DNA of 59,931 nucleotides from a virus (Duplodnaviria > Caudoviricetes), in the IMG/VR virus record IMGVR_UViG_3300036832_000301, positions 1 to 59,931 of that record; one strand, given 5' to 3'. Positions 56 through 59,760 of this stretch are shown piece by piece; position 1 is the stretch's first letter, and each line of letters opens with the position of its first letter. The notes beneath the pieces were generated by a model. It ran no database searches and was not told where the DNA came from. It saw only the letters and a list, made by a program, of their open reading frames with translations. The translations under genes and the position numbers were made by a program.

Positions 56-1360
56 ATGTCCCGAGCATGGCCTGCCGACACGGCTGAGCGCAGGTCTGTT
101 GACGCGCTTGTGCCCTACGCCAACAACGCCAGAACACACACGCCAGAGCAGGTCGAGCAGATCGCCCGGTCAATCGAGGCGTGGGGCTGGAAAAACGCCG
201 TTCTCATAGACGAGGCGGGTGGGATCATCGCCGGTCACGGGCGCGTCCTGGCCGCCAAGCACCTGGGTTATACCGACGTCCCGGTGGTGGTCGCGACGGG
301 TTGGACCGAAGCCGAGAAACGCGCCTACGTCATCGCCGACAACCAGCTTGCCCTGGCCGCCGGGTGGGACGAGGACATGCTGCGGGCCGAGCTTGGCGCG
401 CTGGCGGCGGACGGCTTCGCGCTCGACCTGATCGGCTTCGGCGACGATGAGCTCGGGCGGCTGCTGGCCCCGCCGGAAACCGAGGGGCTCACCGACCCCG
501 ACGACGCGCCGGATGTGCCGGATGTGCCGGTCACCGTCGAAGGCGACCTCTGGCTGCTCGGGCGGCACCGGCTGGTCTGCGGCGATTGCACGGTGGCCGA
601 TACGACGCTGCGGGCGATGGGCGATGTCCGCCCGCACCTGATGGTCACCGACCCGCCCTACGGCGTCGAGTACGACGCCGACTGGCGCAACCACGCGCGG
701 CGACCGGACGGGTCGCTGATCGGCGGGCGGGCTATCGGCAAGGTGACCAACGACGAGCGGGCCGACTGGCGCGACGCCTGGGCGCTGTTCCTGGGCGACG
801 TCGCCTATGTCTGGGGTGCGGGGCTGTGCTCGAAGCAGTCGGTCGAGTCGCTTGAGGCGGCGGGCTTCGTCATCCGCGCCCAGCTTATCTGGGCCAAGAA
901 CCAGTTCGTCGTCGGACGCGGCCACTACCACTTCCAGCACGAGCCCTGCTGGTACGCGGTGCGCAAGACCGGCAAGAGCCATTGGCACGGCGATCACACC
1001 CAGTCGTCGCTCTGGCAGATCGACAAGCCGCGCCGCTCGGAGACCGGGCACAGCACGCAGAAGCCGGTCGAGTGCATGAAGCGGCCCATCGAGAACAATA
1101 GCAGCCCCGGTCAGGCGGTCTATGAGCCGTTCAGCGGCTCGGGCACCACGATCATCGCCGCCGAGATCACCGCCCGGTCCTGCCACGCCATCGAGATCGA
1201 CCCCGGCTACTGCGACGTCGCGGTGCAGCGCTGGGAAGCCTTCACCGGCCAGACCGCCACGCTGGACGGCGATGGCCGAACCTTCGCCGAGATCGCCGCC
1301 GAGAGGGTGCCAGATGCAACCCGGACCACCGCCGAAGCCCACGAAGCTCAAACGGCTTGA
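56..1360 (+). CDS. ParB/Srx-domain N6/N4 DNA methyltransferase
   Basis: N-terminal ParB-like region (PYANNARTH, IIAGHGR, IADNQL), catalytic TDPPYGV, HSTQKPV and SAM-binding EPFSGSGTT; typical position before terminase. Confidence 0.92.
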   Translation: MSRAWPADTAERRSVDALVPYANNARTHTPEQVEQIARSIEAWGWKNAVLIDEAGGIIAGHGRVLAAKHLGYTDVPVVVATGWTEAEKRAYVIADNQLALAAGWDEDMLRAELGALAADGFALDLIGFGDDELGRLLAPPETEGLTDPDDAPDVPDVPVTVEGDLWLLGRHRLVCGDCTVADTTLRAMGDVRPHLMVTDPPYGVEYDADWRNHARRPDGSLIGGRAIGKVTNDERADWRDAWALFLGDVAYVWGAGLCSKQSVESLEAAGFVIRAQLIWAKNQFVVGRGHYHFQHEPCWYAVRKTGKSHWHGDHTQSSLWQIDKPRRSETGHSTQKPVECMKRPIENNSSPGQAVYEPFSGSGTTIIAAEITARSCHAIEIDPGYCDVAVQRWEAFTGQTATLDGDGRTFAEIAAERVPDATRTTAEAHEAQTA

Positions 1361-1829
1361 AGGCAACCCCGGCAAGCAACGTCTGAACGATAGGGAGCCG
1401 GAACCGACCGGGCCATGCAAGCGACCCGCCTTCCTGACGGGCGCTGCGGCTGAGGAGTGGGAACGGGCGTGCGCAGCGATGCCGCCGGGCTTCTACACCG
1501 CCGCCGACATCCCGGTGCTGACCGTCTATTCGCTTTCATGGGTTCAATACCGAAACGCCCTGGCGCAGGTCGGGCGCGAGGGCATGACGCAGAAGACCGT
1601 GCTCGGCCACGACAAGACCCACCCGGCAGTGAACATCTCGCTCAAGCACGCCGAGGTGATCCTGCGCACGGCGGACCGGCTGGGCATGAGCCCGGCGGCC
1701 AGGGCGCGGCTGGAAATGCCGGAAGAAAACGCCGAGCAGGGCAAGTTCGCCGGTCTGTTCGGCGGAAAGCCGCTGCGGCTCGCAATCTCCAACGAGCCGA
1801 GCTCGTCTGCGCGTTCGTCGAAAGGCTGA
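1314..1829 (+). CDS. terS: Terminase small subunit, P27 family
   Basis: ATG at 1314; GPPPKPTKLKRLEGNPGK start, HPAV and LGMSPAARAR motifs. Confidence 0.9.
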   Translation: MQPGPPPKPTKLKRLEGNPGKQRLNDREPEPTGPCKRPAFLTGAAAEEWERACAAMPPGFYTAADIPVLTVYSLSWVQYRNALAQVGREGMTQKTVLGHDKTHPAVNISLKHAEVILRTADRLGMSPAARARLEMPEENAEQGKFAGLFGGKPLRLAISNEPSSSARSSKG

Positions 1830-3322
1830 CCGTCCCGTCAGGCGAAGGTGCGGGCGGCCCGATCAAGCTGCGGCCCTGGCAGCGCCGGTTCATCATCGAC
1901 GTCTATGCGCCGCAGTACGAGGACGGGCTGCGGCTGGTGCGCCGGGCGATCTTTTCGCTGGGGAGGAAGAATGGGAAGACCCTTCTGGCGGCGGCGCTGG
2001 TGCTGGTTCACCTCGTCGGCCCCGAAGCCGAGCGGAACGGTGAGATTTATTCCGCCGCCAACGACCGGGAGCAGGCTGGGCAGGTCTTCAAGATGGCCCG
2101 GCAGATGGTCGAGGCCGAGCCCGAGCTCGTGGCGCGGCTGCGGGTGGTCCCGTCGACCAAGACCATCGCCTGTTACGGCAACGGCAGTTTCTACCGGGCG
2201 CTGAGCGCCGAGAGCGGCACCAAGCACGGGCTCAACCCGACCTTCGTGATCTTCGACGAGCTCGCGCAGGCCAGGAACCGCGACCTGTACGATGTGCTCG
2301 ACACGTCGATGTCGGCGCGGGCCGAGCCGCTGTTCCTGGCGATCAGCACGCAGAGCAACGACCCGGAGCACATCCTGTCGAAGCTGATCGACGACGGGCT
2401 GAGCGGCGCGGACCCGACCACGGTCTGCCACTTGTACGCCGCGCCGGAAGACGCCGAGCTCGACGACGAGTCGGCGTGGTATGCGGCCAACCCGGCGCTC
2501 GGCGACTTCCGTTCGCTGGATGAGCTCGCGACGGCGATGGCGAAGGCGAAGCGGCTTCCGGCCGAGGAGCCGAAAGTCAGGAACCTATATCTCAACCAGC
2601 GGGTCGATCCGACATCGACGCTGATCAGCCGCACCGACTGGCTTGCCTGCAAGGGCGAGGCGAAATGGGAGCCGGGCGAGAAGGTCTATCTGGCGCTCGA
2701 CCTGTCGGCGAAGACCGACCTGACCGCATTGGTTGGGGTGAGTGTCGAGGGTGGCAGCCGGGTCGCGGCGTGGTTCTGGAAACCCGCCGACTATCTGGCC
2801 GACCATGAGCGCCGCGACCGGGTGCCTTACAGCCTGTGGGAGAAACAGGGGCACCTGATCGCCATCCCTGGCCGGTCGATCCATCCGCGAGTGATCGCGC
2901 AGAAGATCGCCGAGCTCGTCAACGAGTACGACGTCGTCGGGCTGGCTTACGACCGGTGGGGTATTCAGAACCTGTTACGCGAGTTCGACGGGGTCGACCT
3001 GCAAGCCCACGACGCCCGCGAGGAGGGCGACGGGCTGCGGCTGGTCTCCTGGGGCCAGGGCTTCAAGGATATGTCCCCGGCGGTCGACGCGCTGGAAACG
3101 GCGGTGCTGCACGAGACGCTGATCCACAACGGCAATCCGGTGCTGACGTGGAACATGGGCAACGCGGTGGTGGTCACCGACCCGGCGGGCGGGCGCAAGC
3201 TGGATAAGACCAAGGTTCGGTTCCGGATCGACGGCGCGGTCGCCCTGGCGATGGCGCTCGGACTCAAGGATCGCGAGCGCGGTCCGGAGGGCGAGAAAGA
3301 ATACCGGATGCTGTTCCTGTGA
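1457..3322 (+). CDS. terL: Terminase large subunit (true start uncertain; homology begins about 1781)
   Basis: LRPWQ, Walker A GRKNGKT, Walker B VIFDEL, ALDLS, YDRW, RIDGAVALAMA. Confidence 0.93.
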   Translation: MGTGVRSDAAGLLHRRRHPGADRLFAFMGSIPKRPGAGRARGHDAEDRARPRQDPPGSEHLAQARRGDPAHGGPAGHEPGGQGAAGNAGRKRRAGQVRRSVRRKAAAARNLQRAELVCAFVERLTVPSGEGAGGPIKLRPWQRRFIIDVYAPQYEDGLRLVRRAIFSLGRKNGKTLLAAALVLVHLVGPEAERNGEIYSAANDREQAGQVFKMARQMVEAEPELVARLRVVPSTKTIACYGNGSFYRALSAESGTKHGLNPTFVIFDELAQARNRDLYDVLDTSMSARAEPLFLAISTQSNDPEHILSKLIDDGLSGADPTTVCHLYAAPEDAELDDESAWYAANPALGDFRSLDELATAMAKAKRLPAEEPKVRNLYLNQRVDPTSTLISRTDWLACKGEAKWEPGEKVYLALDLSAKTDLTALVGVSVEGGSRVAAWFWKPADYLADHERRDRVPYSLWEKQGHLIAIPGRSIHPRVIAQKIAELVNEYDVVGLAYDRWGIQNLLREFDGVDLQAHDAREEGDGLRLVSWGQGFKDMSPAVDALETAVLHETLIHNGNPVLTWNMGNAVVVTDPAGGRKLDKTKVRFRIDGAVALAMALGLKDRERGPEGEKEYRMLFL

Positions 3323-3335
3323 AGGAGCTTTCCCG

Positions 3336-3554
3336 ATGCCCGACAGGAAGCCAGCCGACGAGAGTTGCGCGGTGTGCCGTTACTACCTCGCGTATGACGC
3401 GGACAGCGGCGCATGTCGGCGCTACCCGCCGCAAGCCTCATCGGGTCACTACGCGCCGAGAGACCCGCACCCCGGCGAGGCGGTGGCGCTCATCCGCTAT
3501 CCGGTTGTCTACGCGGCAGAGTGGTGCGGCGAGTTCGTCGCCGCCGCCTTGTAG
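3336..3554 (+). CDS. Small Cys-rich hypothetical phage protein
   Basis: CxxC...CRRYPP...WCGEF pattern; GAAGGAG RBS upstream. Confidence 0.65.
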   Translation: MPDRKPADESCAVCRYYLAYDADSGACRRYPPQASSGHYAPRDPHPGEAVALIRYPVVYAAEWCGEFVAAAL

Positions 3555-3564
3555 GGATGTCCCA

Positions 3565-3735
3565 ATGTCTTTGCTCATATTCGCGGTGGTGGTGCTGATC
3601 GTGGTCGGGATCGTCTGCGCCATCGCCTATCAAATCCCCTTCCCGCCCGGCCTTCTTTGGGCGCGCTGGGCGATCCCGGTCGTCGCGCTGCTGGTCGGCC
3701 TGTTGGCGATCCTGCAACGACTGGTCGTGGTCTGA
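3565..3735 (+). CDS. Small two-helix membrane protein
   Basis: 56 aa, two hydrophobic stretches; stop overlaps next ATG (TGATG). Confidence 0.6.
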   Translation: MSLLIFAVVVLIVVGIVCAIAYQIPFPPGLLWARWAIPVVALLVGLLAILQRLVVV

Positions 3736-4691
3736 TGTCCGTCACCATCACCCCGGATGGCACGCCATCGCTGGCGGATGTGCTGTGGGACCCGGCTCCG
3801 AACGAAACCTATCTGCTGGTCGGCGACTTCCCGGCGGTGAAGGGCGGGCCGCAGACGCCAGCCACCGAACCGTGGACGCTGGACGCCACCGAGGCGACGT
3901 TCAGCGGCTTGCTCTACACCTACAACCTGCATCACCTGACGTTCATCGGCGGCACGTTCGCGCCCGAAGCCGGGTTCCGGATCGACGCGATTAACGATGT
4001 GACGATCCGAGGGACCGCCTTCACCGGCAGCGGGATCGTGATCGTCAAGGGCACCGGCCTGACCGTCACCCAATGCAGCTTCGACCACTGCGGCTGCGCG
4101 GTCTCGGTGCAGGGCACGGACGGGGTGACGATCACCGACAACGTCGTCACCAACAAGGTCGGCGACAGCTTCGACGCGCCTGGGTGCTGCAACGTCACCG
4201 TCTCGCGCAACCGCGACACCGGGGCATCGGCCAACGAGGGCGCGCACCCCGACTTCCTGCAAGCCTGGACCTACGCTGGCGCGTTGCCGATGACCGGATG
4301 GCTGGTCGAGGACAACCACGTCGTCGGGCTGACGCAGGGCATCTTCGTGCCGGATGGGGTGATCGGCTTCGCCCGCCGGAATTATCTCGAAGTCGGCTTC
4401 GTCAACGGCATGGCGGTCGGCAACGGCACCAAGCTCACCGTCGAGGACAACACCTTGAAGACCTTCCCCGGCGGCTTCGGCCAGCCCGGCTTCTCGGTGT
4501 TCACCGGCGGCGAGTATTTCAACGCCGGTGGCAACACCATCGACGGCGAGCCCTACACCGGCGGGTCGCCGGTCGAGCCCAGTCCGGACGACGAGATCGC
4601 CGACCTTGAGGCGCGGCTGGAAAAGATCAGCCGACTGGCTATCGGCATCCTGGCGCTCACCACCGAGGTCATCGAGATCGCGCTCGGCTAG
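3735..4691 (+). CDS. Right-handed parallel beta-helix (pectate-lyase-like) protein
   Basis: Repeated VTIxxN/VTVSRN coils and HPDFLQAW motif; short C-terminal coiled coil. Confidence 0.7.
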   Translation: MSVTITPDGTPSLADVLWDPAPNETYLLVGDFPAVKGGPQTPATEPWTLDATEATFSGLLYTYNLHHLTFIGGTFAPEAGFRIDAINDVTIRGTAFTGSGIVIVKGTGLTVTQCSFDHCGCAVSVQGTDGVTITDNVVTNKVGDSFDAPGCCNVTVSRNRDTGASANEGAHPDFLQAWTYAGALPMTGWLVEDNHVVGLTQGIFVPDGVIGFARRNYLEVGFVNGMAVGNGTKLTVEDNTLKTFPGGFGQPGFSVFTGGEYFNAGGNTIDGEPYTGGSPVEPSPDDEIADLEARLEKISRLAIGILALTTEVIEIALG

Positions 4692-4855
4692 TTGCCGTGT
4701 TGCAGGGAACAGATGCGCGAGTGGCTGTCCCACTCGCCGCCCATCCCAGCGCAATCGTGGCTCGAATGCTCGTCTGAGATCAGCGTCGTGATGATGAACA
4801 TCACGGAAAACACGACGACAGCGACCGTCGCTACGGCCTTCGCCAGCCTGGACAT
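4688..4855 (-). CDS. Small hypothetical membrane protein
   Basis: 55-aa ORF read by eye (MSRLAKAVATVAVVVFSVMFII...). Confidence 0.4.
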   Translation of the reverse strand: MSRLAKAVATVAVVVFSVMFIITTLISDEHSSHDCAGMGGEWDSHSRICSLQHGN

Positions 4856-4918
4856 TTGGACTTCCCCCCACCCGTTACGGTGAAGCTTGTCATAAGCCAG
4901 GGGGGAAGGCGACCAGCT

Positions 4919-5149
4919 TTAGTCGTGAAGGCGATAGCGCCCGAGGAAGGCGCGCGGGTTGATGAACCCCAGATTGACGAGCTCGACGATGCCGAGGCTT
5001 TCGAGGGCGGTGGCGGTGCGCCGGTCGCGCCCGAAGACCTCAACCCCGCGCTCGTCGTTCCCGGCGATCTCTCCCGCCGCGAGCCGGGTCCGCATACTGC
5101 GGTCGGCTGCGATGCAGTCACGAATGAAGGCGGCTTGCGTGGGTGTCAT
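4919..5149 (-). CDS. Hypothetical protein
   Basis: ORF in minus-strand insert between terminase and capsid. Confidence 0.5.
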   Translation of the reverse strand: MTPTQAAFIRDCIAADRSMRTRLAAGEIAGNDERGVEVFGRDRRTATALESLGIVELVNLGFINPRAFLGRYRLHD

Positions 5150-5158
5150 GCGCCCGGC

Positions 5159-5419
5159 CTAGGCTTGGAAAATGCGGCGGGCGAAGAACATAACCTGCTC
5201 GATCTCGCCGTCGTTCATGCAGGGTTGGAAGGGTCCGCCGCCGAAGGGCATCCGCAGCGGGTCGCCCCGGAAGTCGTCGCCGGTCATCGGCACAAACCAT
5301 TGAGCCCCGGCCTCGCCGTTGTGCAGGCGGCGGACGACAAGGCCCTTCGCGGTGCGCTTGCCAATGAAGGTGACGGTCGGGTCGAGTTGCTCGGCGTAAG
5401 GGGCGGTCTGGTCGGTCAT
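5159..5419 (-). CDS. Hypothetical protein
   Basis: ATG at 5419 with GGAG RBS and a partial copy of the repeated promoter upstream. Confidence 0.55.
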   Translation of the reverse strand: MTDQTAPYAEQLDPTVTFIGKRTAKGLVVRRLHNGEAGAQWFVPMTGDDFRGDPLRMPFGGGPFQPCMNDGEIEQVMFFARRIFQA

Positions 5420-5527
5420 ATCTAGCTCCGTTTGTTGAGCCGTGTGTACGCGACTGCGTGCAGCGATGCAAACATTTTCGCACACTATCGCTGCGACATT
5501 CTGACATCACAACTAGGGAGGCTCGCG

Positions 5528-7534
5528 ATGCACCGTGCATATGCGATGCTCGAAGTGCGCGCCGTCGACGACGGCCAGGATCAGCGCACCTTCGAGGGTT
5601 GGGCGACCACGCCCACGCCGGATCGTCTCGGCGATGTCGTCGAGCCGAAGGGCGCGAAGTTCAAAAACCCGCTGCCGTTGCTGCACCAGCACAACAGCGA
5701 CGAGCCCATCGGTCAGGTGCGGCTCAAGAAGGCGACCGACGAAGGCATCGCCTTTGTCGCGACCATTCCCAGGATCGACCAGCCCGGCCCGCTCAAGGAC
5801 CGGGTCGACACCGCCTGGGGCGAGATCAAGAGCGGGCTGGTCCGCGCGGTGAGCATCGGCTTCCGGGTGCTGCAAGACGGCATGGAAAGCATCGCCGGGA
5901 GCGGCGGCATCCGGTTCACCGCGATCGAGATCATGGAGCTCTCGGCGGTCAGCATTCCGGCGAACGCCGACGCCACCATCACCAACATCAAATCCTTCGA
6001 CATCGGGCTCAAGGCCGCGTCTGGCGCACCCGTTGTGAAGCTAAACCCCCCCGGCGTCTCGGGCTCCCCACAACTCAGGACACAAAGGAGCGCGGCGATG
6101 CCCCGCACCGTCAGTCAACAAATCGAAGACTTCAACGCCACCCGCGCCGCCAAGGCTGCGCGCATGGGCGTGATCATGGGCGAGTCGAGCGAGCGCAGTG
6201 AAACGCTCGATGCCTCCGAGACCGAGGAATACGACACGCTCGACGCCGAGGTGACGTCCATCGACAACCACCTCAAGCGCCTGCATTCGCTGGAAAAGGC
6301 GCAGGCCGGGACAGCGGCTCCGGTGATCCGCGCTGGCGTGGAAGCCGGTCGGCCCGCGCTGATCATCGGCGATGGCCTGGGCGCATCTGGCGGCGGTGGT
6401 GGCAGCGCGCGGATCGAGCCGGTGGTGCGCTCGCTTGAGCGGATCGACCCGTCGCTGCACGTCGCCCGGCTTGCTAAGTGCATCGTGCTTGGCCGCATGT
6501 CGCGCGGTGAAAAGAAGGCGTCGGAGTTCGCCTCCGAAATGTATCCCAACGACGGCTTGCTTCCGGACATGATCAAGGCGGTCGTCGCGGGTGGTACGGC
6601 GACCGATCCGACCTGGGCTGGCCCGCTGGTCGGCCCCGCTGGGCTCGCCTTTGCGGCGTTCCTCGAATTCCTTCGTCCGACGACGATCATCGGGCGGTTC
6701 GGGAACAACGGTGTCCCGGCGTTGCAGGCGGTTCCGTTCCGCACGCCTCTCGGCGCGCAGACCACCGGCGGCGCGGGTTACTGGGTTGGTGAGGGCAAGG
6801 CCAAGCCGCTGACCAAGTTCGACTTCTCGCGCACGCAACTGACTGAGCTCAAGGTGGCGAACATCGCGGTCGCGACCAAGGAGCTCATTCGGGACAGCAG
6901 CCCGAGCGCCGATCAATTGATCCGCAACGGGCTGGTGGCGGCTCTGCGCGAGCGGCTCGACATCGACTTCATCACCCCGGCGAAAGCTGCGGTGGCTGGG
7001 GTCAGCCCGGCGTCGATCACCAACGGTGTCGCCGGTATCCCGTCGAGCGGCACGGATGCGGCGGCGGTGCGCGCCGACATCGCGGCGGCGTTCGCAGCTT
7101 ACCGGGCGGGCAACAACCCGCTCAGCGGCGGCGTCTGGATCATGCCGACCAACCTCGCGCTGCAACTGTCCCTGATGGTGACGATCACGGGTGCGCCGGA
7201 ATTCCCTGGCGTGACCCCGAACGGTGGCTCGTTCGCCGGGTTCCCGGTGATCGCCAGCGACTACGTCCCCGCCGGGGACGTCGTGCTGGTCAACGCGCCG
7301 CTGATCTATCTCGCCGACGAGGGCGGGTTCGGCGTCGCGATGTCGGAAGAAGCGTCGCTCGAAATGGTCGACAACCCGGTCGGCGATGCGCACGCAGGCA
7401 CCGGCCCGGCGACCGGCATGGTCTCAATGTTCCAGACCAATTCGGTCGCCATCCTGGCCGAGCGGACGATCAACTGGGTCAAGGCACGGGCGACGGCTGT
7501 GGTCCTGCTGACCGGCGTGGCGTGGGCCGTCTAA
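5528..7534 (+). CDS. Fused HK97-type prohead protease + major capsid protein
   Basis: Protease motifs PLLHQH, VSIGF, ELSAVSIPAN; capsid motifs WVGEGKAKP, SMFQTNSVAILAER; possible internal start at 6098 with AGGAG RBS. Confidence 0.9.
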   Translation: MHRAYAMLEVRAVDDGQDQRTFEGWATTPTPDRLGDVVEPKGAKFKNPLPLLHQHNSDEPIGQVRLKKATDEGIAFVATIPRIDQPGPLKDRVDTAWGEIKSGLVRAVSIGFRVLQDGMESIAGSGGIRFTAIEIMELSAVSIPANADATITNIKSFDIGLKAASGAPVVKLNPPGVSGSPQLRTQRSAAMPRTVSQQIEDFNATRAAKAARMGVIMGESSERSETLDASETEEYDTLDAEVTSIDNHLKRLHSLEKAQAGTAAPVIRAGVEAGRPALIIGDGLGASGGGGGSARIEPVVRSLERIDPSLHVARLAKCIVLGRMSRGEKKASEFASEMYPNDGLLPDMIKAVVAGGTATDPTWAGPLVGPAGLAFAAFLEFLRPTTIIGRFGNNGVPALQAVPFRTPLGAQTTGGAGYWVGEGKAKPLTKFDFSRTQLTELKVANIAVATKELIRDSSPSADQLIRNGLVAALRERLDIDFITPAKAAVAGVSPASITNGVAGIPSSGTDAAAVRADIAAAFAAYRAGNNPLSGGVWIMPTNLALQLSLMVTITGAPEFPGVTPNGGSFAGFPVIASDYVPAGDVVLVNAPLIYLADEGGFGVAMSEEASLEMVDNPVGDAHAGTGPATGMVSMFQTNSVAILAERTINWVKARATAVVLLTGVAWAV

Positions 7535-17583: not shown

Positions 17584-20528
17584 CGGCGGCGGTCGGCTTC
17601 ATCGCGCTTGCCATCGTCGCCGCGCCGGTCGCCGGGGCATTGCTGGCGGGCGCGAGTCTGGGGACGGCGGCGATAGTCGGCGCGGGTGCGATCACCGGCT
17701 TCGGCGCGACGTTGGTCGGCGGGGCCGGGATCGCGGCGGCAATTTCAGCATGGGGGACCATCGCCGTTGGCGCGTCCATTGCCCTGTCGCCCTCGGCCAA
17801 GAAGGTCGGCCAGGGCGCAGCCGGGACGCAGGTCAATTTCCAGGCCGATCCAAATTCGGGCATCCCGTTCTCGCTCGGGCGCACCGGCACGGCGGGCAAG
17901 ATCATCCACGCCAACACGACCGGCCAAGCCGACAAGAACAGCCACCTTTATTATCTGATCGCGCTCTCTGGCGGGGTGATCTCTGGCGTCGAAAGCTTGT
18001 CCTGCAGCGGGCAGCTTTGCACGATGGACGGCGACGGCAACGCCAGCGGCGGCAACATCACCGGACCGTCCCCTTATGGCGGGGCGATGGACATCCGCTG
18101 GACCTACGGCTTCAAGCCCGAGCCCGCCTATATGCAGCCGCCGGGCTTCGATCCGGCGCTCGCGCCCGAGTGGACATCCGATCACCTGACCTCGGGCGTG
18201 GCCTGCGCGTGGTGGTCGCTGATCTATTCGTCGAGCGCCTTCCCGTCAGGCATCCCGTCGCCGATGTTCGTGGTGCGCGGCCCGCCGGTTTACGACCCGC
18301 GCCAGGACAGCACGGTCGGCGGCGGCTCGGGTCCGCAGCGGTGGGACGACGAGTCGACGTGGTCCTATGCCGGGTATGACAACCCGTTCCTGCAAGGGCT
18401 GACCTACTGCATCGGTCGGCGCGACAACGGCAAGCTCACCTTCGGGATCGGCGCACCGATCCAGGCGCTCGATCTCGAAGCCTTCGCCGAAGGTGCCGGG
18501 GTTTGCGAAAGCAACGCCTGGACGGTCGGCGGCGAGGTGCTGTCGACCGATACGAAGTGGGATGCGCTGGCCTCGATCCTGCAAGCGGGCGGCGGCGAAC
18601 CGATCCGGCTCGGCGGGATGATCTCTTGCGTCGTGCGCACCCCGCGCGTGGTGGTCGCCAGCCTGACCGGCCAGGACATCGTCGGCGACGCGGCGATCAC
18701 CGGCAGCAAGGGCCGCAAGGATCGCTTCAATCAGATCATCCCCAGCTATCGCAGCGAGGCGAACGGCTGGCAGATGGTGCCCGGCGGCGCGGTGACAGTC
18801 GACGAGTACGTCACGGCGGACGGCGAACTGCGCAGCAAGGGCGGCAGCTATGCGCTGGTGCAGGACGCCAAGCAGGCCGCCCAGCTTGCGGCGTATGACA
18901 TCGTCGACGCGCGTGAATTCGAGCCGGTGACCCTGCCGGTCGGCCCCAGGTTCGGCGCGCTGGTGCCTGGGGATGTGATCTCGATCACCGAACCTGAATT
19001 CGGCATGAGCGGCCAGGAGCTCATGATCGAGACCCGGCAGATCGACCCGACGACCGGGATGGTTACGCTCACCTGTCGATCCGAGACGCCGTCGAAACAC
19101 GCCTACGCGCTCGGGCAGACGCCGAACCCGCCGCCGATCCCCGGCTTGCAGCCGGTCGACCCGACCAAGGTGTTCGATCCGGACGCAGGCTCATGGACCG
19201 CCTGGGGCGGCATTCTCTCGGGCAGCGACGGGAGCCAAATCCCGGCCATCGTGGTCACCGGCCACGTCAACGATCCGAACGTCTCGAATGTGCTGGTCGA
19301 CATCCGGCTTGAGCTCGACGCCACGCCGACCTTCGGCGACTGGATGACCACCACGGCCCCGGCGAACGCCACGCGGATCGAGATCAGGGCGGTGATCCCC
19401 GGCGCGACCTACAACGTGCGGGTCCGCTACAAGACGGTGCGGCAAGTCGAGGGGATCACCGGGCTCGATCTCGGGCTGGTGACGGTGGGGACGCTGATCT
19501 CAGGCGGCGTCACCACCATCGGCGGGCAGACCCCCGAGGAACTGGTTCAGCAGCTTAACGACACCACCGCGCTCGGGCAGCAGACGTCGGATCAGGCGAA
19601 CCAGACCGCGCAAGACCTGCTGCCGGTGTCGGACAGCGCCAACTATTCGAAGACCCGGATCGACCTGATCGGCTCGCTCCTGCCGAACGGCTCGACGTTC
19701 CAGATGTCCGACACGACGTTGTTCGCCGACGCGTCGACGACCTGGGGCACCTACCGGACCAGCCTGCAAAGCCATGTCGACAACAACACCTCGGCGATCA
19801 CCACCGAGCAGACGGCGCGGGTCAACGGCGACCAAGCCAACGCGACGTCGATCACCAACCTGTCGACAACCGTCAACGGCAACACCGCCTCGATTACAAC
19901 CCTGCAAACATCGGTGAACGGGCTCAACGCGCAGTACGTGCTTTCGGTGAACGCGGGCGGTCAGGTCGCCGGAATGAAGCTGGCGGCGGGCGGCTCTGGC
20001 GGATCGAGCATGGCGTTTATCGCCAGTCAAATCGGGTTCTCGGACGGCACCTCGAATGTGTTCCCGCTGGCGGTGGTCGGCGGCAAGGTGATCGCCACCA
20101 ACTTCCAGGCCGACGACATCAAAGCCAACACGATCACCGCGAACATGATCATCGGCGGGGCGGTGACGGCGACTGGGATTACCAGCGCAGGGGCGCAATC
20201 CAATCCGGTCGGGTCGGAAGTCACCGACATGACGTTCAATTACAACAGCTATGGCGGCGACCACCTGTTCGACATCTACGGCGAGCTCGGCACGTCGACG
20301 AGCTCCGCAGCCGGGACGGTTTTCACCCTCTATTGCGACGGCGGGGCGATCACCTCGGGGGCTGTCTATTGCCCTCCCAACTGGGGCGCGAACGGCGTCA
20401 GCTTCCCATTCGCCCACCGGCCCGGCGCGGGCGGGCACTCCTATCGGCTCGCCCATACCGGCACCACCGGCAGCGGCCCATCGCAGGTCAACCGCACGAC
20501 CGTCGTGCTGACCGAGCTCAAGAAATAA
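17571..20528 (+). CDS. Tail tip / central fibre protein (gpJ-like)
   Basis: GTG start at 17571; VYDPRQDST, Fn3-like PGATYNVRVRY, EQTARVNGD coiled region. Confidence 0.8.
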   Translation: MAKVAAAVGFIALAIVAAPVAGALLAGASLGTAAIVGAGAITGFGATLVGGAGIAAAISAWGTIAVGASIALSPSAKKVGQGAAGTQVNFQADPNSGIPFSLGRTGTAGKIIHANTTGQADKNSHLYYLIALSGGVISGVESLSCSGQLCTMDGDGNASGGNITGPSPYGGAMDIRWTYGFKPEPAYMQPPGFDPALAPEWTSDHLTSGVACAWWSLIYSSSAFPSGIPSPMFVVRGPPVYDPRQDSTVGGGSGPQRWDDESTWSYAGYDNPFLQGLTYCIGRRDNGKLTFGIGAPIQALDLEAFAEGAGVCESNAWTVGGEVLSTDTKWDALASILQAGGGEPIRLGGMISCVVRTPRVVVASLTGQDIVGDAAITGSKGRKDRFNQIIPSYRSEANGWQMVPGGAVTVDEYVTADGELRSKGGSYALVQDAKQAAQLAAYDIVDAREFEPVTLPVGPRFGALVPGDVISITEPEFGMSGQELMIETRQIDPTTGMVTLTCRSETPSKHAYALGQTPNPPPIPGLQPVDPTKVFDPDAGSWTAWGGILSGSDGSQIPAIVVTGHVNDPNVSNVLVDIRLELDATPTFGDWMTTTAPANATRIEIRAVIPGATYNVRVRYKTVRQVEGITGLDLGLVTVGTLISGGVTTIGGQTPEELVQQLNDTTALGQQTSDQANQTAQDLLPVSDSANYSKTRIDLIGSLLPNGSTFQMSDTTLFADASTTWGTYRTSLQSHVDNNTSAITTEQTARVNGDQANATSITNLSTTVNGNTASITTLQTSVNGLNAQYVLSVNAGGQVAGMKLAAGGSGGSSMAFIASQIGFSDGTSNVFPLAVVGGKVIATNFQADDIKANTITANMIIGGAVTATGITSAGAQSNPVGSEVTDMTFNYNSYGGDHLFDIYGELGTSTSSAAGTVFTLYCDGGAITSGAVYCPPNWGANGVSFPFAHRPGAGGHSYRLAHTGTTGSGPSQVNRTTVVLTELKK

Positions 20529-56429: not shown

Positions 56430-56978
56430 ATGGCCCGCCGCAAACACAAGCCAGCCGACCCGCAGGACATCGCCCGTCGACGCGCCGAGCGGGATGCCAA
56501 CGAGATCGAGATCAGACGCTTGCGCGATCACGGCGCGGTGGTCAGCCTGGATCGGGCGCGCAGGATCACCACGGCCTATCGCGCCAGCCCGTTCCGCAAG
56601 CTGCTCGACACCAAGACCATCACCACCACCCAGAGCGCCGCCGCCGAACGCCTCTGCCAGGACTGGGCCGAGTGGAAGGGTCTGGACGGCAAGCCACCGC
56701 CGACCGGCATCCCGAACCCGCATCCGTCGCAGAGCACCGCCTTGGTGACGGATCGGATGTTGCGCGGCGGTCAGCGCATCGCTCAGGCGCTCGGCGCGGT
56801 CGGTCCGGTCGACCGCGAGCTCTTAGGCGCAATGGCCGCCGCTGCGGTTGAGGAAGATTGCCCGATCCCCTGGCGCGACATCGTACGCCGGATCACGGGT
56901 GTCACGCAGACCGTCAGGCAGTCGCAAACCGTCGCGAATGCGCTCGCGAATTTGGTGGGCGCTTATCACTTGAGGTAG
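56430..56978 (+). CDS. Putative late-transcription regulator-like protein
   Basis: Q..AAERL..DW...ALG.VG...L..L...Y pattern and position before HNH/terminase. Confidence 0.45.
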   Translation: MARRKHKPADPQDIARRRAERDANEIEIRRLRDHGAVVSLDRARRITTAYRASPFRKLLDTKTITTTQSAAAERLCQDWAEWKGLDGKPPPTGIPNPHPSQSTALVTDRMLRGGQRIAQALGAVGPVDRELLGAMAAAAVEEDCPIPWRDIVRRITGVTQTVRQSQTVANALANLVGAYHLR

Positions 56979-56983
56979 GCGAC

Positions 56984-57012
56984 GGGCCGCCAGCGAAGCC
57001 CACTGACGGCCC
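56984..57012 (-). terminator. Hairpin at the 3-prime end of the pentamer array
   Basis: Minus-strand GGGCCGUCAG/CUGGCGGCCC 10-bp stem with a G-U pair (a C-A mismatch on the plus strand); no clear U-tract. Confidence 0.5.
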
Positions 57013-57031
57013 CTTGGCGACCTCGGCGCTA

Positions 57032-58115
57032 CTACCCTAGCCGAACCGGCCCAGCCTCACCCAACCACGACGAGCCACACCGTGCCCTGCCACGCCGAAC
57101 CCGGCCATGCCAGCCGCACCGCGCCGGGCCTAACCGTGCAACACCGCGCAACGCCTTGCCTGCCCAACCGAGCCTGACCGCGCCGGGCCATTCCAAGCCT
57201 TGCCTTGCCTGCCGCGCCGCGCCTGACCCGGAGCAACCCCGCCTGACCACGACGGGCCGCGCCACGCCAGCCAGACCTTGCCAAGCCGCACCCGGCTCGA
57301 CCTGACCTTGCCTCGCCTGCCTACCTCGCCAGGACACACCTAGCTCAGCCTCGCCAGCCCTGCCGCGCCCCACCTAACCTAGCCCTGCCAGCCAAGCCGT
57401 GCCACGCCATGACCTGCGTCGCCCTGCCTGCCATGCCGGGCCAAAACAGACCTGACCCCGCCTAGCTGAACCTCGCCATGCCTGCCACACCTTGCCATTC
57501 CAAACCGCGCCTGACCGCACCTTGCCGCGCCGCGCAATGCCTCGCCTGCCAAACCCCGCCTCGCCATGCCCAGCAGCACCGAGCCCCGCTGGGCCTAGCC
57601 TGCCGTGCCCTGCGTTGCCGTGCCTACCATGCCAGACCCCTGCCACGCCTGCCGCGCCGAGCCATGCCCAGCCCCACCGGACCGCGCGATGACACACCGG
57701 GCCTGCCATACCGCACCTTGCGACACCGAACCCCGACCCGCCTAAACAAGCCGTGCCTGCCGCGCCCTGCCCACGCTCGACCTTGCCACACCGCGCTCAG
57801 CCATGCCTGCCGCACCGGGCCGCGCCTCGCCAGACATCGCCATGCCGTGACCCGCCCTGCCAGCCATGCCCTGACCTGCCCCACGTCACCACGTCTGCCA
57901 TGCCGGGCCTGACTCTGCCTGACCCAGCCTCGCCCCACCATGCCTGCCGGGCCGGGCCAAGCCTTGCCTAGCCCTTCCGCGCCGAGCCATGCCAGCCAGA
58001 CCCTACCTGACCTCACATCGCCATGCCCTGCCACACCAAGCCCATCCCCGCCTCGCCTGCCTCACCTTGCTCTGCCTGACCCTGACACGCCTCGCCAAAC
58101 CCAATCTCGCCTCGG
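57032..58115 (-). repeat. GGY-NN pentamer array, about 21 units; putative guide-RNA array
   Basis: Plus strand reads NN-RCC with 5-nt period for over 1 kb; 4-nt TGCC/AGCC phase breaks mostly 49-64 nt apart; no credible ORF; begins at the stop codon of 58116-58640. Confidence 0.85.
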
Positions 58116-58640
58116 CTAAGCCGGTTCGGGTTTAAGCTCGGTTTCGAGCCGCGCGAGTTCCAAGGCCGCGACGGTTTCGTCAATCGCGCCATTGACCCGT
58201 GCGAGCTCGATAAGGTCGCTATATCGCCGTCGCCAGGAATTGAGCTCGCCGAGCGCCCGGCTGAGCAGCCCATGCACGACCTGCGCGTCGCTCGCCGCCC
58301 ATTGCACCCCGGCGTAACCCTGCTCGCCGCCCACGGTGACGATGTTGACGAAGGCGCGCACCCCGTCCCTGATCTCGCCGTCCTTGGTGATGATCTCGAC
58401 TTCAAGCTGCTGCACCACCGCGCGCGCCTGCTCGACCCGATAGGCCGCGCCAGCTACCGCGTCATCCCATTCGAACAACGGATGCAGCGGTGAGCTCGCG
58501 GGCTTCGCCGCCTCGACGATTTCCGGCGGATGCAGCAGCCCGTTCCCGGCCAGGGCTTCGAGCGCTTCGCCGATGGTCTGCGGATCGGTCCCATAACGAT
58601 GGGCTCCGGGTCGCCAGAAATAGGTTGTGCGGCTGGTCAT
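58116..58640 (-). CDS. Partner protein of the Cas7-like gene
   Basis: ATG at 58640 overlaps upstream stop; SPLHPLFEWDD...YRVEQAR motif. Confidence 0.75.
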   Translation of the reverse strand: MTSRTTYFWRPGAHRYGTDPQTIGEALEALAGNGLLHPPEIVEAAKPASSPLHPLFEWDDAVAGAAYRVEQARAVVQQLEVEIITKDGEIRDGVRAFVNIVTVGGEQGYAGVQWAASDAQVVHGLLSRALGELNSWRRRYSDLIELARVNGAIDETVAALELARLETELKPEPA

Positions 58641-59278
58641 CGGCTCGGCACCTTCTCGTTGGACTTGGCGACATGGAAGCGACCGAAAGGCCCGTTGCGC
58701 TGCGGACGCCAATCGCCGATCCCTACCGCGAAACCGGCCAGATCGAACAGGCTGATGACCTGCTCAGGCGAGATCGCCGAGGTGTTGACCTTGACCGTCA
58801 GGATCGCGCCCCAAGGGTTGAATTCAGGGCGATAGCGCAGATCGGCGACCCCCATTCCGACCCGCGCGATGTCTTCGCGCATCGACGGTGGCGGACCGCT
58901 GATCTCGACGAATTCGCCGACGATGTGGAACGCCTGCCGCGCCGCCACCTTGGTCATCCCGGCCACCGACGTCACCGCGTCGACCGCCGCGCTCTTGAAG
59001 CCCACCGCCGGGAAGCCGAACAGCGCCGCCTCGATATCCGCCTCGCTCGGCTTCTTGGGTTTCTCGGTGAGCCAGTAGAGCGCATCGCAGAAGTCGTCCC
59101 ACGGCACCTTGGCGTCGCGGCCTTTCGCGCCCTTGCGCTGCTGCTTGGCCGCCATCTGCTCCTTGGCCTTCTGCGACCACGCATGCACGATCAGCGGGCT
59201 GTCGCCGATGATCGGCACCTCGATGGTCTCCACCTGTAGGCGCGGAAGCTCTAAGACGTTGGTGGTGCTCGCAGCCAT
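58637..59278 (-). CDS. Cas7/RAMP-like RNA-binding protein
   Basis: N-terminal IIGDSPLIVH strand, FPAVGFKSA, RYRPEF..W and C-terminal glycine loop GIGDWRP...GPFGRF; AGGAG RBS. Confidence 0.72.
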   Translation of the reverse strand: MAASTTNVLELPRLQVETIEVPIIGDSPLIVHAWSQKAKEQMAAKQQRKGAKGRDAKVPWDDFCDALYWLTEKPKKPSEADIEAALFGFPAVGFKSAAVDAVTSVAGMTKVAARQAFHIVGEFVEISGPPPSMREDIARVGMGVADLRYRPEFNPWGAILTVKVNTSAISPEQVISLFDLAGFAVGIGDWRPQRNGPFGRFHVAKSNEKVPSR

Positions 59279-59320
59279 GTGCCTTCTCCTGTTGCTCTAT
59301 ACAGCCCTACCCCCTAGGCA

Positions 59321-59349
59321 ATTAGCCGACTCACTCACATATCTGTCAA
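59321..59349 (-). promoter_or_regulatory. Sigma70-type promoter for the Cas7-like operon
   Basis: Minus strand TTGACA-N17-GCTAAT; GANTC site in the spacer. Confidence 0.55.
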
Positions 59350-59442
59350 CGCCGCTGTATGGTGGCCTGTGTGCAGGGTGGACGCTACGGGTGGTGTTGC
59401 AAGACCCTTGCACCCCTATAGGTATAGGCGGATAACTTGGTT

Positions 59443-59760
59443 ATGGGGCAGCGACCGCGCCCATCCGACCGGACGCCAGAGGTCGCGGCCTATCAGCGAT
59501 GGTACTGGACGCCGCGCTGGCGTCGTAAGTCGCACGATCAACTGATTGCGCATCCGTTCTGCGCCTACTGCCTGCGCGACGAAGGTGTGTTCACCGCCGC
59601 GACGATCTCCGATCACGTCATCCCGCATCGAGGTAACGCACATCTGTTCTGGCACGGCGAATTGCAGAGCTTGTGCAAGCCGCACCACGACGGCGATAAG
59701 CGGCGCGAGGAACAGATGATGCAGCCCGAGCGCTGCGATGCGGATGGATGGCCGGTGTGA
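59443..59760 (+). CDS. HNH endonuclease (terminase-associated)
   Basis: PFCAYC...DHVIPHRG...LQSLCKPHH..K; adjacent to packaging genes on circularisation. Confidence 0.88.
   Translation: MGQRPRPSDRTPEVAAYQRWYWTPRWRRKSHDQLIAHPFCAYCLRDEGVFTAATISDHVIPHRGNAHLFWHGELQSLCKPHHDGDKRREEQMMQPERCDADGWPV

Follow-up and report, generated by a model that had tools for sequence, protein, structure and literature searches.

The window (the whole 59,931-base stretch of DNA analysed here) very probably carries a Viral Interference Programmable Repeat (VIPR) system with a staggered array of approximately 20 guides, in which the stretch at 57900-57944 would be one vrRNA. Judged from sequence, the cognate target of this guide is predicted to be the JAB active-site window of ubiquitin-like anti-phage modules, with an anti-defence effect, and we put the probability of this joint reading (target and effect together) at roughly 0.55. 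VIPR is an already described kind of system (2026 preprints); an anti-defence class of targets appears to be new.

According to the available portion of the discovery paper (10.64898/2026.04.26.720920), a VIPR system combines a Vipr protein, in most cases accompanied by a single accessory vap gene, with vrRNAs built from 9-16 GGY/NN pentamers. The NN dinucleotides pair with double-stranded DNA, one target base (usually the codon wobble position) being skipped; either strand can be targeted, and transcription is repressed upon binding. The available portion of the structure paper (10.64898/2026.04.26.720927) describes Vipr protomers that polymerise along the vrRNA, with GGY hidden and NN presented. 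Seven VIPR types are distinguished; in some of them, the arrays are staggered, each vrRNA sharing one base with the next (Fig. S18 legend, 10.64898/2026.04.26.720920). The experimentally confirmed forms are the ribozyme-interspersed and single-vrRNA ones, and the available text of the same paper is silent on the staggered form.

Organization of the array and its neighbouring genes

The record is linear, with an estimated completeness of 78% and a GC content of 60-73% per kilobase. It belongs to a temperate tailed phage, and its genes include those for a ParB-methyltransferase, large terminase, head, portal, tape measure, tail fibre, integrase, and primase/helicase. ARAGORN also called a tRNA-Cys at 19106-19186 (minus strand), antisense within the 1004-aa tail fibre gene and probably spurious. 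The features discussed below are as follows.

57048..58111, minus strand: staggered vrRNA array of GGY/NN pentamers (lag-5 periodicity and register-tracking parse)
57896..57944, minus strand: JAB vrRNA unit, nine GGY/NN pentamers and a closing GGCA at 57899-57896 (parse; JAB matches)
57704..57757, minus strand: second decoded vrRNA unit, 10 NN (matches to [MI]AFTDPPYNV, complementary strand)
58116..58640 (possible start up to 58712), minus strand: candidate vap (accessory) gene, 174 aa, phrog_15946 (position between vipr and array)
58637..59278, minus strand: vipr gene, 213 aa, predicted RAMP-like guide-binding protein, phrog_4652 (profile match to PDB 36pp_D)
638..667, plus strand: the phage's own DPPY motif, LMVTDPPYGV, in the ParB-methyltransferase gene 56-1360 (phrog_498 / PF01555), agreeing with the second unit at 14/20 guide positions

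The array tract (~57000-58110, ~1.1 kb, non-coding) was placed between convergent genes, and its self-identity at a lag of 5 was 0.50, compared with 0.27 for a control kilobase. Of all 300-nt windows in the 59.9 kb, the ten showing the highest lag-5 excess were located inside the tract (0.14-0.22, versus a record mean of -0.015 and sd of 0.044). No 3-nt periodicity was found in the tract, and the plus strand was C-rich (GC skew, -0.34). A parse of the minus strand gave 30 runs, 14 of which ended in a 4-nt GGCA and six in GGCT; because this 4-nt element closes the runs, consecutive runs were offset by one base. Twenty in-register runs contained at least 6 full units and 15 contained at least 9, and 15 array units carried 9-12 NN. 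No Rfam family matched the tract. A scan of 56800-59500 for sigma-70 promoters and intrinsic terminators, a weak test for a phage of 67% GC, gave none.

A degenerate end of the array extended to about 56979; this promoter-distal part (56979-57047) consisted of irregular decayed units touching the stop codon of the convergent plus-strand gene (56430-56978), and a simple scan detected no terminator-like site near it. The array (57032-58034, both strands) also contained open frames of 111-144 aa without codon periodicity (for example, 57624-58034 on the minus strand and 57478-57912 on the plus strand), which gene callers would likely annotate as hypothetical proteins.

The vipr gene, the small candidate accessory gene, and the ~1.1 kb of GGY/NN pentamers were all co-oriented. 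A 50-sequence profile of the vipr product (A1) matched one solved structure, chain D of PDB 36pp ('SUSP1 Vipr protein'), with an E value of 2e-37 over profile positions 16-203, that is, nearly the full length, whereas the window Vipr alone (single sequence) matched the same structure with an E value of 4.9e-5 and was thus distant from SUSP1 Vipr. In a check for the glycine-rich loop of RAMPs, of which Vipr is a minimal homologue, a C-terminal block (G181/G185/G187/R190/G198), at least 90% conserved, aligned with GvGDWRP..FGRF of SUSP1 Vipr in a comparison of sequence, not fold. The family comprised 2,035 homologues with an E value of 0.001 or less among 2,229 candidates; the 120 listed homologues had no Pfam domain and no name beyond hypothetical or uncharacterized, and the named ones closest to the window Vipr, among the matches listed, were from Brevundimonas (66%) and Hyphobacterium (64%). 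The product of 58116..58640 had neither a Pfam nor a PDB match. In 11 loci, members of its family (~160 aa; 150-215 aa) separated vipr from the array, and this position makes the gene a candidate vap. Of the other loci, roughly half had an array that began directly 3' of the vipr stop codon without a vap-like gene.

Decoding of two guides and their genomic matches

The plus strand at 57900-57944 reads ATGCC GGGCC TGACT CTGCC TGACC CAGCC TCGCC CCACC ATGCC; the minus strand of the unit is therefore GGCAT GGTGG GGCGA GGCTG GGTCA GGCAG AGTCA GGCCC GGCAT, followed by GGCA. GGY was present in 8 of the 9 fixed triplets, the seventh being AGT, and the unit was bounded by one-base register shifts. A first-pass annotation had extracted the NN series AT GG GA TG CA AG CA CC AT, which is exact on the minus-strand reading, and had translated it into a JAB metal-binding motif. 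The translation, [IM]G[DE][WC*][HQ][SR][HQ]P[IM], conforms to the genetic code, a stop also being possible at the fourth position. Its proposal of an RNA guide in which NN are codon positions 1 and 2 coincides with the published VIPR rule. With 9 NN, the unit has the length of the shortest published guide in the available text (10.64898/2026.04.26.720920). Among 414 units parsed from ~120 arrays, the H[ST]HP signature was found in one, that of the window, compared with a shuffle mean of 0.16. The window itself contains no JAB gene, as initially stated (PF14464, 0 matches), and the JAB unit had no self-target in the phage genome, the best match being 13/18.

Targets were searched for in a collection of one genome per species (185,579 species genomes). 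The one-base-skip pattern, ATNGGNGANTGNCANAGNCANCCNAT, gave 18 exact matches, compared with a chance expectation of approximately 17 (2 x 596 Gb / 4^18 at equal base frequencies). Seven of the 18 encoded YIG[ED]WHSHP[IM] in an open frame; eight of the remaining 11 had nearby in-frame stops, and the three open ones read IGECQSHPI (twice) and IGECHSQPI. The seven in-frame matches, which came from four phyla, all covered the same 9-codon active-site window in a single domain family. In a single scrambled control with the NN order reversed, eight matches were obtained, seven with in-frame stops, and they had no family in common. The search for in-frame JAB matches that the first-pass annotation had proposed was thus positive, with three of the matches in Alphaproteobacteria (Acetobacterales), and the matched genes are anti-phage genes.

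Six of the seven in-frame matches were in proteins of 739-762 aa (one cut by a contig end) composed of Prok-E2_A, ThiF, and Prok-JAB, and scored 353-629 bits on NCBIfam NF058523, 'anti-phage 6A-MBL system cap2_3 protein' (cut-off, 320). They originated from Falsiroseomonas, a Roseomonas MAG, and an Acetobacterales MAG (the three of Acetobacterales), and from Chitinophagaceae, a gammaproteobacterial MAG, and Bacteroidales. The seventh was a stand-alone JAB protein of 190 aa. The NN string of the unit agreed with YIGEWHSHPI of cap2_3 at 18/18 positions, in frame, the skipped base being the wobble position. In the Falsiroseomonas locus (L126), to which the check for partners was confined, an MBL-fold protein at 5187-6782 (NF058524, 381.7 bits; cut-off, 220) was followed by cap2_3, which lay 5' of a patatin-like phospholipase gene and adjoined a type I restriction R subunit; the target site was 175-200 bp upstream of the patatin start. 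On the minus strand of this locus (1646-6782), the start of the patatin-like gene overlapped the stop of cap2_3. The patatin-like gene may be an effector of this 6A-MBL variant.

The first-pass annotation had assigned the motif to JAB proteases of ubiquitin-like operons, including Cap3 of type II CBASS. The broader assignment, to the JAB of ubiquitin-like anti-phage systems, was retained, but Cap3 of type II CBASS was rejected as the target because the proteins scored only 22-44 bits on NF050170 (cut-off, 200), and no CD-NTase was found beside cap2_3 in L126 by PADLOC, Pfam, or NCBIfam. The 'E1-E2' and 'JAB' models of CBASS in PADLOC do match domains of cap2_3. The target family predicted from these sequences is well supported: the best matches are 6A-MBL cap2_3, and Cap3-like genes on viral contigs are one mismatch away. 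6A-MBL, here the predicted target of the guide (cap2_3, E2-E1-JAB) and not an element in the window, is named among the known jumbo-phage defences of Pseudomonas aeruginosa in the available text of 10.1101/2025.09.30.679545, and is described as incorporating ubiquitin-related elements in the available passage of PMC13276650 on experimentally confirmed antiphage components.

The full 9-NN pattern had no match in IMG/VR viral contigs. Shortened to 8 NN, it gave six matches, two of which were in JAB genes (YIGEWHSHPS; 17/18 positions). These were stand-alone genes in E1/JAB(/SAVED) modules: one lay 3' of an E1-like gene and 5' of a SAVED/Cap4-like gene, and the other 3' of a 610-aa ORF with a weak E1-region match. 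No match with one mismatch or less was detected in 400 other sampled genomes of Alphaproteobacteria. Among 151 genomes of Acetobacterales, cap2_3 exceeded the cut-off in only two, one with 18/18 and the other with 15/18 positions (serine encoded by TCT). No other window unit with at least 9 NN matched the 8-kb cap2_3 loci with three or fewer mismatched positions, five other guides had no near match in four genomes of Acetobacterales, and three other guides each gave none in an exact search of viral contigs. In a search for the host, relatives of the major capsid protein were spread over Proteobacteria with an identity of 48% or less. When the first 20 kb of the record was compared with five target-bearing genomes, a substantial match was obtained in the methyltransferase gene only (67-71% identity), and no close prophage was found.

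The second decoded unit (57704..57757) had at least 120 exact matches in species genomes, compared with about one expected by chance. All 120 listed matches read [MI]AFTDPPYNV in frame on the complementary strand (116 with M, three with I, and one cut by a contig end), the catalytic motif of ParB-DNA methyltransferases of ~440 aa, and a homologue of the phage gene 56-1360 (identity of up to 59%) was present at 119 of them. One genome of Acetobacterales (G002) had a single 18/20 match. Since the phage's own DPPY motif agrees at 14/20 positions, below the 80% given as the guide-match level in the available text of 10.64898/2026.04.26.720920, it would escape its own guide, and this looks like discrimination between self and rival. 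By this decoding, the array carries motif-directed guides, at least for the DPPY unit, which serves as a positive control for the parse.

Occurrence in other viruses and comparison with published VIPR systems

Weak blastn matches of the region were obtained with Cluster F (Cheoctovirus) mycobacteriophages, a Gordonia phage, and a cyanophage, and the two mycobacteriophage loci inspected both contained the same kind of tract. Vipr homologues were located at 2258-3004 (minus strand) of L003, gp49 of Mycobacterium phage Donkeykong (A1 profile E value, 2.6e-58), and at 2243-3226 (minus strand) of L002, an ORF over gp52 of DRBy19 (3.5e-57). GGY/NN arrays were found just upstream of these homologues in the early right-arm operon (~2990-3345 of L003 and ~2985-3240 of L002); the hypothetical proteins gp48 and gp51, annotated over the arrays, are probably not genes.

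When IMG/VR was searched for (GCCNN)7GCC, a series of eight GCC triplets with NN between them, at least 120 viral contigs were found to carry such tracts, 80-1,593 bp in length, at loci of 39-76% GC. In the subset of loci that had 55% GC or more and an evident strand skew, the gene within 400 nt upstream of the tract was co-oriented with the G-rich strand in 75 of 83 cases, and the tract is therefore considered to be transcribed as (GGYNN)n. Clustering of flanking ORFs revealed a family of ~215 aa in 56 loci, nearly always upstream and co-oriented, to which the 58637-59278 gene belongs. Among the units parsed from the ~120 other arrays, 186 of 414 ended in the 4-nt GGCA, and the staggered architecture seems to be the commonest form in the sampled viral contigs. 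Relatives with a 36-62% identical Vipr had no guide in common with the window array. Two further loci, L189 (4246-5371) and L190 (4246-5150), had the same Vipr match (48% to that of the window) and the same order of guides; four units of L189 were absent from L190, one of these four duplicating another unit of the array, and the difference looks like the gain or loss of whole guides.

As far as the available portions of 10.64898/2026.04.26.720920 and 10.64898/2026.04.26.720927 describe them, the VIPR systems of Escherichia phage SUSP1 and of a Pseudomonas fulva prophage (type II) resemble the window locus in several respects. Each encodes a Vipr homologue and a small gene that is accessory or, in the window, a candidate for this role; the GGY/NN RNA is co-oriented with them; the guides comprise 9-16 repeats; and these match coding DNA under the one-base-skip rule, with the skip at the wobble position. 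The window locus thus combines the features of VIPR: the Vipr homologue, the co-oriented pentamers, the guide length, and the wobble-skipping matches to coding DNA. On the other hand, the window array lacked the conserved 3' tail described between guides in those two systems, its units abutting with a one-base overlap, and the number of guides was larger (~20 versus 4 in SUSP1). One base common to successive guides, present in the window as the closing GGCA/GGCT, is also a property of published staggered arrays, as far as the Fig. S18 legend describes them.

According to the available text of the discovery paper, VIPR is naturally directed at satellites, prophages, and other VIPRs (10.64898/2026.04.26.720920); the available portions of the VIPR papers specify a satellite recombinase, lysis-lysogeny regulators of prophages, VIPR loci, and decoy REP sites, and indicate that published arrays tend to direct many guides at one element. 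Similar to these reported targets, the JAB guide covers a conserved stretch with codon periodicity inside a protein-coding gene, but differs in that its best matches are to a component of anti-phage defence. The terms 'CBASS', 'JAB', and 'anti-defense' are absent from the main texts of the VIPR discovery, competition, and structure papers, the supplementary target tables of which might list such targets. 'Counter-defense' is likewise absent from the main text of the discovery paper (10.64898/2026.04.26.720920), in which 'host defense' appears once, on bacteria co-opting VIPR; the latter term does not appear in the competition and structure papers. In the literature collection searched, no paper combined 'vrRNA' with 'anti-defense'.

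Other phage counter-measures offer a second comparison. Phage ICP1 encodes a CRISPR-Cas directed against PLE, a defence island of the host, and anti-CBASS proteins also exist. Similar to the proposed guide, these are a programmable guide or a dedicated inhibitor acting against host or satellite immunity. However, VIPR acts by silencing transcription, using a gapped RNA-DNA code, and the window locus contains no nuclease; anti-CBASS proteins act on the signal molecule, not on the gene.

A putative anti-defence role of the JAB guide and its alternatives

If the JAB guide functions as described in the VIPR papers, a Vipr filament would form on the vrRNA with NN exposed, bind double-stranded DNA while skipping every third base, and block transcription on either strand. 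In a cell with the target operon, the complex would be positioned ~175-200 bp upstream of the effector gene (the patatin-like phospholipase gene in the case of L126). Expression of cap2_3 would be lowered, and that of the effector may also be lowered by polarity, so that a ubiquitin-like anti-phage system, chromosomal or prophage-borne, would be weakened. This anti-defence reading is made weaker by the rarity of the target, the lack of a close prophage in the target-bearing genomes, the absence of convergence of guides on the operon, the confinement of the H[ST]HP signature to this one unit among the 414 parsed, the lack of common guides in relatives, the minimal length of the unit, its AGT repeat, and the use of a single scrambled control. 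Silencing a gene the proteins of which have already been made may also be of no help to an infecting phage.

The pentamers would have nothing to do with guides if the tract were a structural element, such as a G-rich transcript with R-loops or two-tier quadruplexes, a C-rich strand for Rho loading, or a DNA array bound by protein. Although the strong strand asymmetry, the location between convergent genes, and the lack of an Rfam family are in line with such an element, we consider it very improbable because a Vipr homologue matching a solved structure is linked to tracts of this kind in 56 loci, the combination of fixed GGY and free NN is what the VIPR structure requires, and two units exactly match coding motifs under the one-base-skip rule. 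R-loop/origin, two-tier G-quadruplex, Rho-loading, TRAP-like ring binding, Chi-like arrays, and pentapeptide coding were each dropped on the basis of the same linkage of the Vipr gene. A separate question is whether the resemblance to JAB arose by chance, in which case the unit would be a guide for another, unsampled target, or a decayed guide, with NN coinciding with a deeply conserved motif. The total number of exact matches is equal to the expectation, the motif was recognised after the fact among ~20 units and two strands, and there is neither a second guide on the operon nor a link to a host, in addition to the one degenerate repeat and minimal length. These points give coincidence some weight; nevertheless, it is unlikely in view of the clustering of seven matches in frame on a single active-site window across four phyla, which the reversed-order control did not reproduce, and of the known placement of VIPR guides on codon-periodic conserved windows, a behaviour also observed for the second unit with DPPY.

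A genuine JAB guide may also serve competition between mobile elements, its target being the E1/JAB module of a competing prophage or satellite, which would be crippled or marked as a competitor with no bearing on immunity. The published natural targets are of this kind, two viral contigs carry JAB genes that match at 17/18 positions, and the sister guide at 57757 is directed at a homologue of the phage's own ParB-methyltransferase, a typical gene of mobile elements. We nevertheless regard such a purpose as quite improbable: the 18/18 matches were confined to bacterial genome records, the full pattern was absent from viral contigs, and the L126 gene adjoins a type I restriction gene, not phage genes. 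Moreover, the modules on viral contigs are themselves of the defence type (with a SAVED/Cap4-like neighbour), so that weapons against rivals and weapons against immunity overlap here. The silencing of ubiquitin-like anti-phage modules remains our preferred reading of the JAB guide. A wider proposal, that one array combines anti-rival (DPPY of ParB-methyltransferases) and anti-immunity (JAB) guides and that VIPR may serve as a programmable, escape-resistant anti-defence, is tentative, and we hold it at somewhat below even odds.

Should the anti-defence reading prove wrong, the locus would remain a clean and richly armed example of a staggered VIPR array. The natural targets of VIPR have so far been competing mobile elements; if it is true, RNA-guided anti-defence would join the counter-measures of phages. 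It would also point to a design principle, in which the first two bases of invariant catalytic codons are targeted, so that synonymous changes give no escape. Since Vipr homologues are numerous (2035, E value of 0.001 or less) and their guides are readable from DNA, this idea would be testable at scale.
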